Source of the DNA: a virus
Taxonomy: Duplodnaviria > Heunggongvirae > Uroviricota > Caudoviricetes
DNA: 17,337 nucleotides
Virus record (IMG/VR): IMGVR_UViG_2778261161_000005
Strand: one strand, 5' to 3'
A program made the translations under genes and the position numbers. A model generated the notes under the pieces. It made no database searches. It saw only the letters and a list, made by a program, of their open reading frames with translations, and was not told the DNA's origin. Within the stretch, counting starts at the first letter, position 1. Each line of letters opens with the position of its first letter. This document shows positions 1,400-16,036 of this stretch, piece after piece.

Positions 1400-1464
1400 A
1401 ATAAGTCCTCACTATATAAAGATATTCAGTGATGAGATAAATAATCAGTTAATTAAGAACGATA

Positions 1465-1827
1465 TTAATGACCTGCTGCGCGTAGTTTTCCGTCAGGTTC
1501 ACCGGCAAGAGTCAGTAATTGTCCCTGGTCTTCCTGCAGAATAGTCAGGCGACCACCGCGATTGACATACATCGGCGTTTCGGTGGTGTCTTCTTCGGAA
1601 ATTTTCCCGCGGTTAGTCGGGCGAACATATGAGAGTTTGTGTTTGATTTTCACACGGTTCTCATCAAATGGTTCGATTTCCAGGTTGAGTGAGACCTTAC
1701 CTTTGGTTTTCGTGTTCATCACACCGGAAGCGACTTCACTGAGAACTGCGCCGATTTTGGTTTCAAATACGCCGCCGTCCAGCTCCCCGATAAATGCCTG
1801 CACATCAGTACTGCGTTCGCTAGCCAT
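1465..1827 (-). CDS. small prophage protein, YfdP-like (120 aa); the track ORF 1465..2058 is trimmed to the ATG at 1825-1827
   Basis: The internal ATG (MASERSTDVQAF...) is preceded by GGAGCAGCAAA (SD GGAG). The upstream part of the track ORF is Cys/Arg-rich and lies inside the GC-rich noncoding stretch, so the longer start is unlikely. Confidence 0.55.
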   Translation of the reverse strand: MASERSTDVQAFIGELDGGVFETKIGAVLSEVASGVMNTKTKGKVSLNLEIEPFDENRVKIKHKLSYVRPTNRGKISEEDTTETPMYVNRGGRLTILQEDQGQLLTLAGEPDGKLRAAGH

Positions 1828-2423
1828 TTTGCTGCTCCTCATCATATCGACCCTGCAAGGTCGGTTGGTTTCTCCACAAAACAGAGAAGAACACCTGCGG
1901 TGGCAGCCGCCCGGATGGATTGGGTTATGAGCCCGTCGTCCGGTGATGCTCTTCTCTGTTTTGTAAAAAGAGCGGTACCAGCCGGAAGCAAGTGTACAAA
2001 CTGGTACCGCCAAAGCAGTGGCTGTTGTGGTGGGGTTGTCACTCAGGCGTATGGTCAACCTGACAATCCGGTGTCCTCAACGGGGAAAGAGTAACCCAGC
2101 CATACTTACCGCCGCGCCATTTCGCGGATGACCACAACGCTGAGAGCACTTAGCCAGTTACGGCACCACACTTTGTCGCGGCTCCATAAATGCCCTCATC
2201 GTTGCACCCTGGTCTCTTCCCAGGCGTCAAACCGGATCGCCACGCTGGTTAGGCGTCTTATCAGCATCATCATTGACTTGCACATTCCGGCTACCTGGTT
2301 TGTTTGCCCTAGCAAGGAGTGGATTGTCCCCTTTAACGTCCCCAGACCGCTAACGACGCATGTGCCATACGCCGTGTTACAACCAAATTTTGTTTGAATC
2401 TTGCCTGCCTCATGTTTCTTTTG

Positions 2424-2456
2424 GATACATTATGTATCTCATAGGTACATTGTCAA
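2424..2456 (-). promoter_or_regulatory. leftward sigma70-like promoter (pL-like) with overlapping operator palindrome
   Basis: On the minus strand: TTGACA (plus 2451-2456), 16-nt spacer, CATAAT (plus 2429-2434). The perfect palindrome GATACAT-T-ATGTATC (2424-2438) overlaps the -10. Confidence 0.45.
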
Positions 2457-2458
2457 GT

Positions 2459-2483
2459 ATAAAAAAACCTGCCGAAGCAGGTT
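2459..2483 (-). terminator. rho-independent terminator of the repressor gene
   Basis: Minus-strand hairpin AACCTGC-TTCG-GCAGGTT followed by a U-run (plus-strand A-run 2459-2467), 13 nt after the repressor stop codon. Confidence 0.6.
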
Positions 2484-2495
2484 CATAAATATTGA

Positions 2496-3170
2496 TTAGG
2501 CCTTTATTGTGTATCTTCTTGGTTTTCCCGAGAAAATCACTGTACCAATTATAGAGCAATTACCGTTAATCTTAATGTAAGGCTCAGGCCAGTTTGGGTT
2601 TAATGCTTTGAGATAACGCTGTGTTCCATCTTCTATCAATCGCTTGAAGGTGGTTTCGCCTGTATCGTGCATCAATGCAATAACGTCGTCACCGTGGCAG
2701 GCAGGGACTTCGGGATCAACAAAAATCATGTCTCCAGGGCGGTACTCATCAATCATTGAATCACCAATCACCCGCAAGATATAAGTCATTTCGCCACAGG
2801 GTACAGGGCAGGGATACGTTTCTGCTGTGCTCAAATCAACCTCAGAATAGCCAACTTCTTTCCATGCTCCGGCCTGTACCCATGATATGACAGGGACTAA
2901 CGTTATTTGTTTGTTAGTGATTGAAACATCAGGTTTTTTTGTGATGTTCGTTGTCTGGTGTTCTTGATCAAGCCATCCGACAGGCAGGTCGAAACATTTT
3001 TCGATGTGCCGTGCCATGCTGTCACCGATATTTTTAGTAGCGCCATCCCCCATAAACCTGCTGGTTTGGGTTGGCTCGCGATCAATCATGGTGGCAAAGG
3101 ATGAATTTCCGCCAACACCATCTCTCAGTTTTCTGGCGTTAGACCGCCGGATGTCATGGATTGTTTTCAT
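2496..3170 (-). CDS. prophage repressor, cI/LexA-like with C-terminal S24 peptidase domain (224 aa)
   Basis: C-terminal half carries the Ser (GDSM) and Lys (TFKRL) motifs of S24 self-cleaving repressors and a candidate Ala-Gly cleavage site (VQAGAW). Divergently arranged with a Cro-like gene. Confidence 0.8.
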   Translation of the reverse strand: MKTIHDIRRSNARKLRDGVGGNSSFATMIDREPTQTSRFMGDGATKNIGDSMARHIEKCFDLPVGWLDQEHQTTNITKKPDVSITNKQITLVPVISWVQAGAWKEVGYSEVDLSTAETYPCPVPCGEMTYILRVIGDSMIDEYRPGDMIFVDPEVPACHGDDVIALMHDTGETTFKRLIEDGTQRYLKALNPNWPEPYIKINGNCSIIGTVIFSGKPRRYTIKA

Positions 3171-3185
3171 AACGAAATTAAAACC

Positions 3186-3209
3186 TTTGTACCGATAAGG
3201 TACAAGTAC
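3186..3209. promoter_or_regulatory. operator-like overlapping palindromes in the repressor/cro divergent intergenic region
   Basis: TTGTACC-GATAA-GGTACAA (3186-3204) overlapping GGTAC-AA-GTACC (3198-3209); three GTAC cores spaced about 10 bp apart between the divergent repressor and cro starts. Confidence 0.45.
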
Positions 3210-3260
3210 CTTGAAGGTTCATTTCAATCATGTAATGTGTATACTGGAGGTACATATTGT

Positions 3261-3461
3261 ATGAAAGCGTATTGGGACTCTTTAACCAAAGAACAGCAGG
3301 GCGAGTTGGCCGGAAAAGTTGGCTCAACACCTGGCTACTTACGGCTGGTTTTCAATGGTTATAAAAAAGCCAGTTTTGTGCTGGCGAAAAAACTTGAGCA
3401 ATGCACGTCAGGTGCAATTACGAAATCTGACTTAAGACCGGATATCTACCGTGACATTTGA
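3261..3461 (+). CDS. Cro-like/YdaS-family small HTH regulator (66 aa)
   Basis: ATG at 3261 with GGAGG SD at 3246-3250; small protein with an HTH-like core (GELAGKVGSTPGYLRLV) and a C-terminal LRPDIY motif; divergent from the S24 repressor. The track ORF 3156..3461 is trimmed. Confidence 0.7.
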   Translation: MKAYWDSLTKEQQGELAGKVGSTPGYLRLVFNGYKKASFVLAKKLEQCTSGAITKSDLRPDIYRDI

Positions 3462-3550
3462 AGAGAAGTATGGCTCCCAACTGGAGCTGATATTTCGTTT
3501 TATCGATCGTGCGCTGGCAATTGGCGTACTGGCGTAAGTGGAGAACGAGC

Positions 3551-4303
3551 ATGAACCTTGAAGCCTTACCAAAATATTACTCCCCAAAATCTCCAAAATT
3601 GAGTGATGCCGCACCGGCGACAGGCTCAGGTGGTTTAACGATTACGGATGTGATGGCTGCGCAGGGGATGGTGCAGTCGAAAGCACCGCTTGGGTTTGCC
3701 TTATTCCTGGCAAAAGCTGGCGTTCAGGATCCTCAGTTTGCGATTGAAGGTCTGCTCAATTACGCGATGGCACTGGATAACCCGACATTGAACAAATTGA
3801 GTGAAGAAATCCGGTTACAGATCATCCCTTACCTTGTGAGTTTTGCCTTTGCTGATTATTCCAGGTCTGCGGCAAGTAAGGCTCGCTGTGAGCCTTGTGC
3901 TGGTACTGGATTTCATAATGTATTGCGCGAAGTGGTGAAATACTCCAGAAGCGGGGAGTCTGTTATCAAGGAAGAGTGGGTGAAGGAACTATGTCAGCAT
4001 TGTCATGGTAAGGGAGAAGTCAGCACAGCGTGCAGAGGGTGTAAGGGTAAAGGTATTGTCCTGGATGAAAAAAGGACCCGGCTTCATGGCGCGCCTGTTT
4101 ATAAGATTTGTGGGCGTTGCAATGGAAACCGGTTTAGTCGTTTACCAACGACACTGGCGCGGTGTCATGTCCAGAAGCTGGTACCAGACCTGACTGATTA
4201 TCAGTGGTACAAAGGATATGCAGATGTCATTGATAAACTGGTTACAAAGTGCTGGCAGGAAGAAGCATATGCTGAGGTGCAATTAAGAAAAGTGACGAGA
4301 TAA
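3551..4303 (+). CDS. quuQ: late-gene antitermination protein Q (QuuQ/QuuD-like, 250 aa)
   Basis: ATG at 3551 with GGAG SD; several Cys-x2-Cys pairs (CEPCAGTG, CQHCHGKG, CRGCKGKG, CGRCNGN) typical of phage-82-type Q proteins; immediately followed by a promoter plus terminator pair. The track ORF 3509..4303 is trimmed. Confidence 0.75.
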   Translation: MNLEALPKYYSPKSPKLSDAAPATGSGGLTITDVMAAQGMVQSKAPLGFALFLAKAGVQDPQFAIEGLLNYAMALDNPTLNKLSEEIRLQIIPYLVSFAFADYSRSAASKARCEPCAGTGFHNVLREVVKYSRSGESVIKEEWVKELCQHCHGKGEVSTACRGCKGKGIVLDEKRTRLHGAPVYKICGRCNGNRFSRLPTTLARCHVQKLVPDLTDYQWYKGYADVIDKLVTKCWQEEAYAEVQLRKVTR

Positions 4304-4718: not shown

Positions 4719-4931
4719 TCATGAAAGGTAAACATTGGCAGCTGAAGGGCCACGCAGACCATTTATCCGGCAAAATTCCACGCGTAATCCGGTGGTAATT
4801 TCTTCTGCATCGCGGAGATTGAGCGCTGAAACATGAAGCTGGACATCGATACGACCATCGGATGGGGTGATAAGACCCTTGCCGCTTTTGCCGTCAAAGG
4901 TTTTGACAATTCCTGTCATTTTACGGGACAA
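4719..4931 (-). CDS. cspF: cold-shock-like protein CspF (70 aa)
   Basis: Translation [27 protein letters not shown]...[10 protein letters not shown] matches the CspF/CspH subfamily as recalled; divergent from cspB as in Qin. Confidence 0.85.
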
Positions 4932-5231
4932 AAAAATTCCTTAATACTGATAACTGGGCGCACTATACACACGTTCCTGAAGAAAGCTATAGTTTTTTGA
5001 TGGGGTTGAAGATGGCTGGATGTCTAAAATAAACATTGCTTCATATGTTCAACTATGCGTTAATGATTGCGTCGGTTTGAAGAACAGACGATATACGAAG
5101 TAGTTTACTAAAGCAGTTCTCATTTCAGGTGTTATTCACTTATTCCTTCTTTGAGTCTCTCCAATTAAGTACGAAGTCGTTTCTGTTATACAAGCCATTT
5201 ATGCCGAAAGGCTCAAGTTAAGGAATGTAGA

Positions 5232-5447
5232 ATGTCAAATAAAATGACTGGTTTAGTAAAATGGTTTAACGCTGATAAAGGTTTTGGCTTTATTTCTCCT
5301 GTTGATGGTAGTAAAGATGTGTTTGTGCATTTTTCTGCGATTCAGAATGATAATTTTCGAACCTTATTTGAAGGTCAAAAGGTTACCTTCTCTGTAGAGA
5401 GTGGTGCTAAAGGTCCTGCAGCAGCAAATGTCATAATTACTGATTAA
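5232..5447 (+). CDS. cspB: cold-shock protein CspB (71 aa)
   Basis: Translation [38 protein letters not shown]... carries the RNP1 (KGFGFI) and RNP2 (VFVHF) motifs; about 270 nt of upstream leader-length DNA as in cspA-family genes. Confidence 0.9.
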
Positions 5448-5728
5448 AATTCATAGTTTGTCTGTATACGATAACGAAGAAGGCTGATGCCTGAGTGGAG
5501 ATACAGACAGAGTGGTGAATATTGGATCTCTTTAATAAATAGTAAGGAGGTCCAATACATGAAACAATGGCCAGCATATTTGGCAATAACTTAATCAGGA
5601 AAAGTATGCTAACCATTGTGGTGAAGTGCAGGTTTGCTGCATGAATAGTTTTACAGCAGAAGCTAACTGCTGGCATAGCAAAACAAAGTGCGTAAGTGGA
5701 TGACTCCCACAAAAAGTACCACAATATT

Positions 5729-8320: not shown

Positions 8321-8683
8321 ATTAATATTAAATCGGATTATTTTTAGCGCTGAATGTGAAATTTAAATAAAAAGGACTCTTCCATGAGTCAAAATCCTTG
8401 AAATCTTAAGGGTAAGATAAAAGGTCATTAGACAGAATGACACGTTTTATTAATAAATAAAGCTATTGTTTCATTCGTGTGTTTTTCTTTACAAAAGTAA
8501 TCCTTGCTATGGTTGGTTAATCATGCGTTAATGGTGTTCTGGTTTGTTACAAAATTATCTGAAGCAGTCATTGTTATAATTTTATTATTTGTACCTCTTG
8601 AGATCTCCTTGTTGGTTTTTCTCTCTGATATTTTTTTTCGGACCATTCTGCCCAAGGGCTAACTTCTTCAAAAGGTAATAATG

Positions 8684-8896
8684 ATGTCTAACAAAATGAC
8701 TGGTTTAGTGAAATGGTTTAACCCTGAAAAAGGTTTTGGTTTCATCACGCCGAAAGATGGTAGCAAAGATGTGTTTGTCCATTTCTCAGTTATTCAGAGC
8801 AACGATTTCAAAACGTTAACTGAGAATCAGGAAGTCGAATTTGGTATTGAGAACGGACCTAAAGGCCCCGCGGCTGTTCATGTAGTGGCACTTTGA
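8684..8896 (+). CDS. cspI: cold-shock protein CspI (70 aa)
   Basis: Translation [45 protein letters not shown]... matches CspI as recalled; about 360 nt of upstream leader-length DNA. The track starts one codon earlier (8681). Confidence 0.9.
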
Positions 8897-9100
8897 GGTA
8901 GAAAATATTACAAACCATATTCACTTTAGATGCCCGTGTTGCCATGGTTCTCAGTATAGAACATCATCTTTTGATGTTTCTGACAGGAATCCTTTCGGGG
9001 CAAAATGTATCTTTTGTAAATCAATGATGATTACATTTGATAATATTTCACAATACTTAAATGTTAGCCGTCTGTCGTTAGATTTAAGAAAGTGAAAATG

Positions 9101-15461: not shown

Positions 15462-16036
15462 TGGCATTCAGAATGAGTGAACAACCACGGACCATAAAAA
15501 TTTATAATCTGCTGGCCGGAACTAATGAATTTATTGGTGAAGGTGACGCATATATTCCGCCTCATACAGGTCTGCCAGCAAACAGTACCGATATTGCACC
15601 GCCAGATATTCCGGCAGGCTTCGTGGCTGTTTTCAACAGTGATGAGGCATCGTGGCATCTCGTTGAAGACCATCGGGGTAAAACGGTTTATGACGTAGCG
15701 TCAGGGGACGCGTTATTTATTTCTGAACTCGGTCCGTTACCGGAAAATGTTACCTGGTTATCGCCGGAAGGGGAGTTTCAGAAGTGGAACGGCACAGCCT
15801 GGGTGAAAGATGCAGAAGCAGAAAAACTGTTCCGGATCCGGGAGGCGGAAGAAACAAAAAACAGCCTGATGCAGGTAGCCAGTGAGCATATTGCGCCGCT
15901 TCAGGATGCTGCAGATCTGGAAATTGCAACGGAGGAAGAAATCTCGTTGCTGGAAGCATGGAAAAAGTATCGGGTATTGCTGAACCGTGTTGATACGTCA
16001 ACTGCACAGGATATTGAATGGCCAGCACTGCCGTAG
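15461..16036 (+). CDS. tail fibre assembly protein (Tfa), 191 aa
   Basis: Translation [39 protein letters not shown]... matches TfaQ/TfaR-type proteins as recalled; start overlaps the stf stop (TAATG). Confidence 0.85.

Follow-up and report, generated by a model that had tools for sequence, protein, structure and literature searches.

sRNA-17 of Escherichia coli K1 RS218 is a small RNA (sRNA) of 193 nucleotides (nt) that was mapped by rapid amplification of cDNA ends (RACE), detected on Northern blots and located in a mEp460-type prophage, where its 3′ end by RACE is a DicF-like terminator; shortened versions have been termed 'degenerative sRNA-17' (PMC7719688). It occupies the same locus, between the repressor gene and yfdP of a lambdoid prophage, and the same strand as the RNA analyzed here, which is predicted from a gap of approximately 660 bases (positions 1828-2495, repressor to yfdP) in a 17,337-nt stretch of viral DNA (IMG/VR record IMGVR_UViG_2778261161_000005, Caudoviricetes; hereafter the window), a defective lambdoid prophage of E. 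coli. On the minus strand of this gap, the core of a conserved structured RNA was located at 2380-2201 (covariance model R1, 144.9 bits), and an sRNA-17-like RNA at 2139-1966. Comparison of homologous copies shows the core to be a family of predicted RNAs of its own, distributed across Enterobacterales prophages and absent from Rfam, and as judged from the alignments the gap is a mosaic of separately mobile RNA modules, with four parts on the minus strand, and not one leader.

sRNA-17 was mapped onto the window through mEp460, the published primers delimiting L002 2717-2910, which corresponds to window 2139-1966. The mEp460 RNA spans from CGUUGUGGUGAAU, the 3′ base of a closing hairpin designated X', to the same terminator as in the window. 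The window RNA (5′ end, CGUUGUGGU) is identical to sRNA-17 in its first 9 nt and last 68 nt, and the approximately 100 nt between them are unrelated, a module otherwise found upstream of dicF standing in their place. Because the window lacks the Northern-probe sequence and its RNA cannot be aligned with sRNA-17 in the middle part, the window RNA is a variant of sRNA-17 and not the same RNA. In the homologous mEp460-type prophage, both a leftward transcript and the 193-nt RNA were shown experimentally (PMC7719688). Two hairpins lie within the window RNA, at 2034-2069 and at 2112-2127, the latter (CCGCGCCATTTCGCGG) exactly as noted in an earlier sequence-only reading of the same DNA.

The module in the middle (2016-2138) shares 87-88% identity with the sequence that immediately precedes dicF in Tritos-type phages and is partly homologous to the 'dicF-like region' of P1. 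It precedes a DicF-like intrinsic terminator (2010-1965, minus strand) with a perfect 10-bp stem (GCGGUACCAG/CUGGUACCGC), a 19-nt loop and the tract UCUUUUU (-20.9 kcal/mol), which begins with UUUGGCGGUACCAGUUUGUAC compared with UUUGGCGGUAUCAGUUUUAC in DicF. The hairpin differs from that of DicF in its perfect 10-bp stem, and the 5′ target-pairing part of DicF (UUUCUGGUGACG) is absent from the window, so that only the 3′ half is similar. The Rfam DicF model (RF00039) gave no match in 1700-2600 at E values up to 10 and scored 72.5 bits in Tritos, next to the homologous stretch. As in the window, the dicB operon of Qin-type prophages places protein genes behind an sRNA terminator. The terminator and sRNA-17-like part are therefore already known and occur here as a variant, and it is their relatedness to DicF that is newly observed.

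In HK022, a lambdoid phage that lacks N, pL likewise first yields a structured RNA, put, with terminators following. The put RNA is a 73-nt, two-stem, V-shaped element present in both early operons (pL and pR), whereas one copy of the core was found in the window and in every full phage record listed; expression data from RS218, described below, argue against a put-like antitermination role for the core. Neither a sequence match nor an R1 match was obtained in HK022 24000-40751 at E values up to 10, a region that probably contains both put sites although they are unannotated in the record. GOLLD and ROOL RNAs often adjoin tRNA genes. Like the core, they are prophage-carried orphan structured RNAs (PMC12286853). 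The core has no Rfam match to either, is far smaller (165-250 nt), is found in Enterobacterales and lies behind a repressor gene in half of cases. The C4 antisense RNA of P1 and P7 is excised from a longer early transcript, as is proposed here for the window RNA, and it has no sequence or model similarity to the window, in which no Rfam C4 match was found. The 5′ end of C4 is reportedly generated by RNase P, as Hartmann and colleagues are said to have found in 1995.

The core was defined by comparison. In an initial alignment of the window, P1, D6, phiV10, typing phage 9, BUCT711, SPN9TCW, Tyrion and mEp460, long invariant stretches alternated with variable hairpins, and a non-redundant alignment of 42 sequences yielded the helices P1 (2354-2374), P2 (2342-2350 paired to 2290-2298, with a variable tip at 2299-2341), P4 (2242-2256) and P5 (2208-2224) together with two candidate pseudoknots, PK1 (2362-2365 with 2280-2283) and PK2 (2247-2250 with 2230-2233). 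Model R1 was built on these 42 sequences, including the window, and was then used to align 101 copies, 95 of which were distinct. Window 2201-2380 (minus strand) matched model positions 1-163 with E = 7e-48 and with P1, P2, P4 and P5 formed; since the window is among the model sequences, this match represents consistency and not independent detection.

Covariance analysis across homologous prophages, which the sequence-only reading had proposed as a check, revealed compensatory changes. Across the 95 distinct sequences, standard pairs occupied 95.9% of cells, compared with 24-41% when the partners were slid by 1-3 columns; both sides had changed at 18 of the 33 pairs, and none of 500 shuffles reached any of the five observed measures. 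P1 pair 11-25 is split evenly between G-C (47 sequences) and A-U (47), P4 pair 152-160 occurs as four pair types, and both-side variation was found at all five pairs of P5. PK2, in which bases of the P4 loop pair with a downstream strand, is CACC/GGUG in most copies, AACC/GGUU in the window and GGUC/GACC in one copy (L259), a whole-helix swap, and is paired in 99.5% of cells. Candidate PK1 would join GCAC of the P1 loop to GUGC of an invariant 18-mer (GUAGCCGGAAUGUGCAAG, 2277-2294) and is paired in 100% of cells, its columns being invariant. The alignment shows the predicted core fold to be maintained by compensatory changes. Three unrelated phage backbones also agree at approximately 60 unpaired positions, which are invariant. 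The functional strand is the minus strand, since frequent G-U pairs, such as the U-G found at pair 12-24 in 91 of the 95 sequences, would be C-A mismatches on the opposite strand.

Two other pairings were considered and rejected. A long-range helix (GGCACAU/AUGUGC) given by RNAalifold for the first alignment in place of local P1 was rejected as the main fold because P1 shows the perfect G-C/A-U switch, and four of its pairs were retained as candidate PK1. An inner helix AUCG/CGAU within CACC..GGUG was rejected, its varying position covarying with P4. In lower P2 (2290-2298/2342-2350), the conserved GCGGUC/GGUAGC is not fully Watson-Crick, and Klebsiella-type variants change U-G to C-A, which is no standard pair; this suggests that lower P2 may be a special internal-loop motif. 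The CCTGG/CCAGG hairpin listed in the sequence-only reading is P5 itself, placed there one base off and with a 6-nt loop, whereas it spans 2208-2224 with a loop of 7 nt.

Downstream of the core lies closing hairpin X' (2135-2204, minus strand), in which CAACGAUGAGGGCA pairs with UGCUCUCAGCGUUG around a variable insert. X' follows P5 in 63 of the 101 family members, with inserts of 40-260 nt, and its cognate strands pair at -23.1 kcal/mol compared with -18.9 kcal/mol for non-cognate strands, a value as low being reached in 0 of 2000 permutations. Some inserts contain hairpins resembling tRNA T-arms (GUCUGGUUCGAUUCCAGAC and GGUCCGUUCGAUUCGGACACC), as in L134 at approximately 1830-1935 (Kp4866-6) and in L010 (SPN9TCW), which hints that pieces of tRNA may have been incorporated into the X' RNA. 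Within the sRNA-17-like RNA, the 5′ GUUGUGGU (2131-2138) pairs with ACCACAAC (2024-2031), which is followed by AGCCA, and the predicted closing stem resembles an acceptor stem with a CCA end. By analogy with C4, this acceptor-like stem and CCA suggest a possible RNase P route for the window RNA, and RNase P cleavage is put forward here as a hypothesis. mEp460 retains the closing stem (GUUGUGGUGA/UCACCACAAC) despite its different middle, and in Uetakeviruses the same GUGG forms the first base pairs of tRNA-Arg.

A coding function for the gap, as suggested by small open reading frames (ORFs) annotated in mEp460, Ayreon and cdtI, was weighed against these data and is hardly credible. ORFs of 37-89 amino acids (aa) are present on both strands, and some phage records annotate them on one strand or the other, with no RNA annotated in the gap. 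The ORFs of the gap gave no match in a Pfam search, no frame of the core is kept open among 114 homologues, core lengths are evenly distributed over the three residues modulo 3, indels do not come in threes, and substitutions track base pairing. The sequence-only reading had found no convincing coding sequence and had named a conserved frame in homologues as the finding that would overturn it; such a frame was sought in the 114 homologues and none was found. Coding is thus excluded as far as sequence can show.

The invariant 18-mer (GTAGCCGGAATGTGCAAG), matched exactly, retrieved at least 120 viral contigs. R1 detected a single core copy in the window and a divergent copy in Klebsiella phage Kp4866-6; in SfV, K-12 CPS-53, ST64B, phiNP and Tritos, as in the HK022 region given above, it detected no copy. 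Sequence places all 24 confirmed species genomes in Enterobacterales, including a 1.7-kb contig labelled as a Bacillota metagenome-assembled genome (MAG), and the confirmed hosts include Escherichia, Citrobacter, Klebsiella, Enterobacter, Kosakonia, Kluyvera, Phytobacter and Erwinia dacicola, among others. Of 100 metagenome loci, 98 were confirmed at 89 bits or more. The core was found in 1834 of 5426 complete E. coli genomes, in which 554 places are on P1-like plasmids, and none of the 40 matches listed in complete E. coli genomes carries an annotation of it. Rfam 15, searched with gathering thresholds and with E values up to 10 on the window, P1 and Tritos, gave no match in the gap or core region, and a text search of the literature with five conserved-block strings of the core found no relevant paper; preprints on Pas sRNA and Minerva were examined and are unrelated to it. 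Judged by Rfam 15 and by the literature open to searching, the core is undescribed as an RNA. An element of ~165-250 nt is thus unannotated in a third of complete E. coli genomes, despite intensely studied prophages, P1 and Stx-converting phages, and with a covariance model, exact coordinates and natural pseudoknot-swap variants it is a concrete, testable object. One contig (L028, IMGVR_UViG_2791355294_000005) carries two core copies on the same strand approximately 800 nt apart (3993-4158 and 4800-4963; 119 and 162 bits), the sole tandem case seen. Outside Enterobacterales, L139 901-1040 (a Marinobacter MAG) and L213 10587-10726 are near-identical and share both conserved blocks and GGCGAU, with R1 scores of 17-21 bits; they are probably chance matches, or else a very distant relative.

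The genomic context of the core varies. Of the 101 non-redundant copies, 48 have a same-strand cI-type repressor gene upstream (the pL position), within 113-250 nt for half of these, and the other contexts are Uetakevirus-type (32), P1-type (6) and unclear (16). A promoter-like site is present 30-60 nt or ~90 nt upstream of many copies. A same-strand tRNA gene occurs within 1.5 kb in 47 of 130 copies, and at every junction read at sequence level the tRNA directly abuts the core element. In P1 and D6, tRNA-Ile(CAU) stands ahead of the core, which begins 15 nt beyond the CCA end of the tRNA and is itself followed by ban; in phiV10, typing phage 9 and BUCT711, the X' end runs into the 5′ end of tRNA-Arg(UCU) (GCGUU|GUGGCAU...), which in phiV10-type phages is followed by a strong terminator, two terminators separating the RNA-tRNA unit of phiV10 from the next gene. 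The first downstream protein genes are mutually unrelated across copies. A terminator-like hairpin was found within 600 nt downstream in 64 of 87 copies, compared with 46 of 87 on the opposite strand, a modest excess. The window itself contains no tRNA or tmRNA (transfer-messenger RNA) according to ARAGORN, and the gap has no Rfam tRNA match at E values up to 10.

In a search of phage records, the gap was recovered as separate pieces and not as one block: 1830-2032 in SfV, SfII and others, 2016-2138 in PPompW and Tritos-type phages, 2132-2375 in phiV10-type phages (Uetakevirus), and 2211-2388 in P1, P7 and D6. The order on the minus strand is promoter and operator, an unstructured 5′ leader of ~40 nt, a structured RNA of ~240 nt made up of the core and X', the sRNA-17 variant, a long hairpin, and yfdPQR, the ribosome-binding site of yfdP being the last of the four parts. 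The sequence-only reading had proposed a single GC-rich structured leader, possibly with a regulatory RNA. Its structured or regulatory RNA stands (G+C content is 52-57% across 1800-2400, compared with 37-48% for most flanking stretches), and its single leader gives way to the four-part mosaic; that account did not include the mosaic build, the conserved RNA family that is fused to tRNA elsewhere, or the sRNA-17 variant with a DicF-like terminator. This shows that lambdoid phages lacking N assemble their early-left leaders from RNA modules that can be exchanged (tRNAs, DicF-like pieces and structured RNA), which bears on the control of early transcription in such phages and on the spread of phage RNA genes.

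The long hairpin proximal to yfdP (1964-1876, minus strand) is branched, with compensatory changes at 6 pairs in 7 sequences, and is kept upstream of yfdP/sb37 homologues in E. coli, Salmonella ST64B, Klebsiella Kp4866-6 and Citrobacter phiNP. The long-range pair 1881-1890/1950-1959 of the sequence-only reading is real and belongs to this hairpin, whose arms extend further than proposed (1876-1900 and 1940-1964). Upstream of yfdP in K-12 CPS-53 (L006 9440-9530), neither the core nor the long hairpin is present, and three direct repeats of ~15 nt (ATTTTGAYGSGTCAGA) were found.

We consider it reasonably probable that the gap is the untranslated start of the pL transcript, modular in build and processed into stable RNAs, with the terminator limiting yfdPQR and the core acting in trans. 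By this mechanism, the pL transcript, or in the lysogen a transcript reading through from the co-oriented repressor gene, would be cut at the base of X', freeing a structured RNA of ~280 nt and the sRNA-17-like RNA; the RNase P cut expected at the fused tRNA-Arg of phiV10-type phages would fall 3-4 nt downstream of the position corresponding to the X' base. sRNA-17 is accordingly read as probably a processing product of the pL leader. The DicF-like terminator would serve as an attenuator, a fraction of polymerases reaching yfdPQR, and the core would be a stable RNA that acts in trans by binding a conserved component of the host. The trans-acting role is favored because of the ~60 invariant unpaired positions, the lack of a common protein neighbor and the association with tRNA genes.

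The core could alternatively be a cis-acting processive antiterminator RNA, like HK022 put or the Bacillus EAR element, that carries polymerase through the DicF-like and later terminators. The promoter-like sites upstream of many copies, the pL position behind cI in nearly half of them (where putL sits), the absence of an N-like gene from the early-left operons, the downstream terminator-like hairpins, including both of those in phiV10, and the many invariant unpaired bases, suited to contact with RNA polymerase or another conserved machine, would all agree with this. In RS218, however, one transcript contains both the core and sRNA-17, and wild-type cells gave 0.49 yfdP reads, compared with 47 for the deletion strain (PMC7719688); because sRNA-17 ends there and yfdP is nearly silent, the terminator works downstream of the core. 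Moreover, the core is a single copy per phage with none in the pR operon, the put fold differs from it, the excess of terminators is small, and movement among unrelated operons together with tRNA genes better suits an accessory RNA gene, so that antitermination is unlikely. The interpretation of PMC7719688 is that the core DNA is the ArcA-regulated promoter of sRNA-17, in which case the RNA conservation would be incidental. Phospho-ArcA bound a fragment corresponding to window 2139-2388 in an electrophoretic mobility shift assay, and the 5′ RACE start corresponds to window 2139 (PMC7719688). That fragment is the conserved RNA itself, the assay used 20-80 μM protein, and no sigma-70-like site of at least 9/12 was found on the minus strand within 2139-2388. 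The published quantitative reverse transcription PCR amplicon runs from the core 5′ end into sRNA-17 (PMC7719688), and since it begins at the core 5′ end, the core is co-transcribed with sRNA-17. A promoter would also leave unexplained the compensatory changes, the pseudoknot swaps and strand-specific G-U pairs, and the tRNA-fused copies of P1 and Uetakeviruses, after which no sRNA-17 follows. We therefore regard this interpretation as improbable, and the 'promoter' DNA of a published virulence-linked sRNA is reread as a conserved transcribed RNA.

A ligand-sensing riboswitch, or an attenuator governing the downstream terminator, would account for the complex pseudoknotted fold, the many invariant unpaired nucleotides and the location within a 5′ leader that leads up to a terminator. 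Between the core and this terminator are 190 nt that include another module, the two have no sequence in common, the downstream genes share no class and are tRNA genes in a third of cases, and no Rfam riboswitch family matches, all of which makes this very improbable. There is a similarly slight chance that the modules descend from phage tRNA/sRNA clusters as decayed remnants or spacers, kept as mere recombination joints with no role of their own. The mosaic build, the GUUGUGG junction that coincides with the tRNA-Arg 5′ end, the T-arm-like hairpins inside some X' inserts and the lack of a tRNA in the window are what such remnants would leave, but decay would not retain the invariant positions and compensatory pairs in three phage groups and many genera, and the core is without tRNA-like features by ARAGORN and Rfam. 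We tentatively raise the possibility that the core is the founding member of a new class of phage RNA, compact, pseudoknotted and exchanged together with rare-codon tRNA genes by temperate phages of three unrelated lineages, which might bind a host machine early (RNA polymerase, ribosome, RNase or a tRNA-handling enzyme), represent a third type of RNA-only antiterminator unrelated to put and EAR, or be catalytic.

Several points weigh against the preferred reading. Accumulation of the core as a discrete RNA is a prediction, and for its trans-acting role the varied contexts are the sole ground. The sRNA-17 5′ end could be primary and not processed, the ArcA-bound fragment was described as promoter DNA, and the rise of yfdP in the RS218 deletion strain may have been caused by the inserted resistance cassette. 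Nearly all members were gathered through exact matches to conserved blocks, so that conservation is overstated and the taxonomic range possibly understated. One member (L253) has no P1 loop, and PK1 is unproven because its columns never vary. Taken whole, the minus-strand leader has a better predicted fold than its shuffles (z = -4.19) and than the plus strand (z = -2.80), whereas the single modules do not differ significantly from shuffles (z = -1.1 for the core and -0.5 for the sRNA-17-like RNA); the evidence for structure is therefore comparative and not thermodynamic.

Transcription of the gap would start from a pL-like sigma-70 promoter (TTGACA-16-CATAAT, 2456..2429, minus strand) that agrees with consensus at 11 of 12 positions, ranks first among promoter-like sites in 1400-3400 and predicts a transcript start at ~2421; the record of phage Ayreon annotates the same feature as a promoter. 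A perfect 15-bp operator-like palindrome (GATACATTATGTATC, 2424-2438) covers the -10 hexamer. Both the leftward promoter and the overlapping palindrome claimed in the sequence-only reading are present, as is the repressor-gene terminator that it named, an intrinsic terminator (2484-2465, minus strand) in which a T run comes after the hairpin GAACCTGC-TTCG-GCAGGTTT. Two matches to the half-site pattern RTACANNNTGTAY lie in the window, in the palindrome and at 3250-3262 just before the cro-like gene; since this count is at chance level, the placement alone is suggestive. The block common to phages of other immunity types stops at 2403, just within the transcript. The promoter looks repressor-controlled.

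A nut-like antitermination site, which the sequence-only reading had also considered, did not hold up. Matches to boxA (CGCUCUUA or UGCUCUUUAACAA) were at chance level with none in the correct layout next to boxB, none of the downstream ORFs is N-like, and the sole boxB-like hairpin, P5 with its 7-nt loop, resembles lambda nut boxB in its purine-rich loop only.

The gap is flanked by yfdR (1-447), yfdQ (DUF2303; 575-1399) and yfdP (1465-1827; matching phrog_204), all on the minus strand, and by an S24-type repressor gene (2496-3170; matching Peptidase_S24). Translation of yfdP truly begins with the ATG at 1827, which GAGGAG precedes by 7 nt, in agreement with annotated homologues; the ribosome-binding region of yfdP on the minus strand comprises a small hairpin (1848-1863), the Shine-Dalgarno sequence GAGGAG (1835-1840) and the start codon (1825-1827). 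The mechanical ORF list extends yfdP up to a TTG at 2058 (197 aa; 1465-2058, minus strand). A cro-like gene (3261-3461, plus strand) is directly followed by a Q antiterminator gene (PF03589, with a DnaJ zinc-finger motif), both within 3261-4303; because the replication genes normally found between cro and Q are absent, the prophage is deleted. Elsewhere in the window, Rfam matched IS009 at 15804-16002 (plus strand, 221 bits) and gave two cspA-thermoregulator matches of 156 and 117 bits, at 5071-5510 and 8537-8942 (both plus strand), over cold-shock-like prophage genes.

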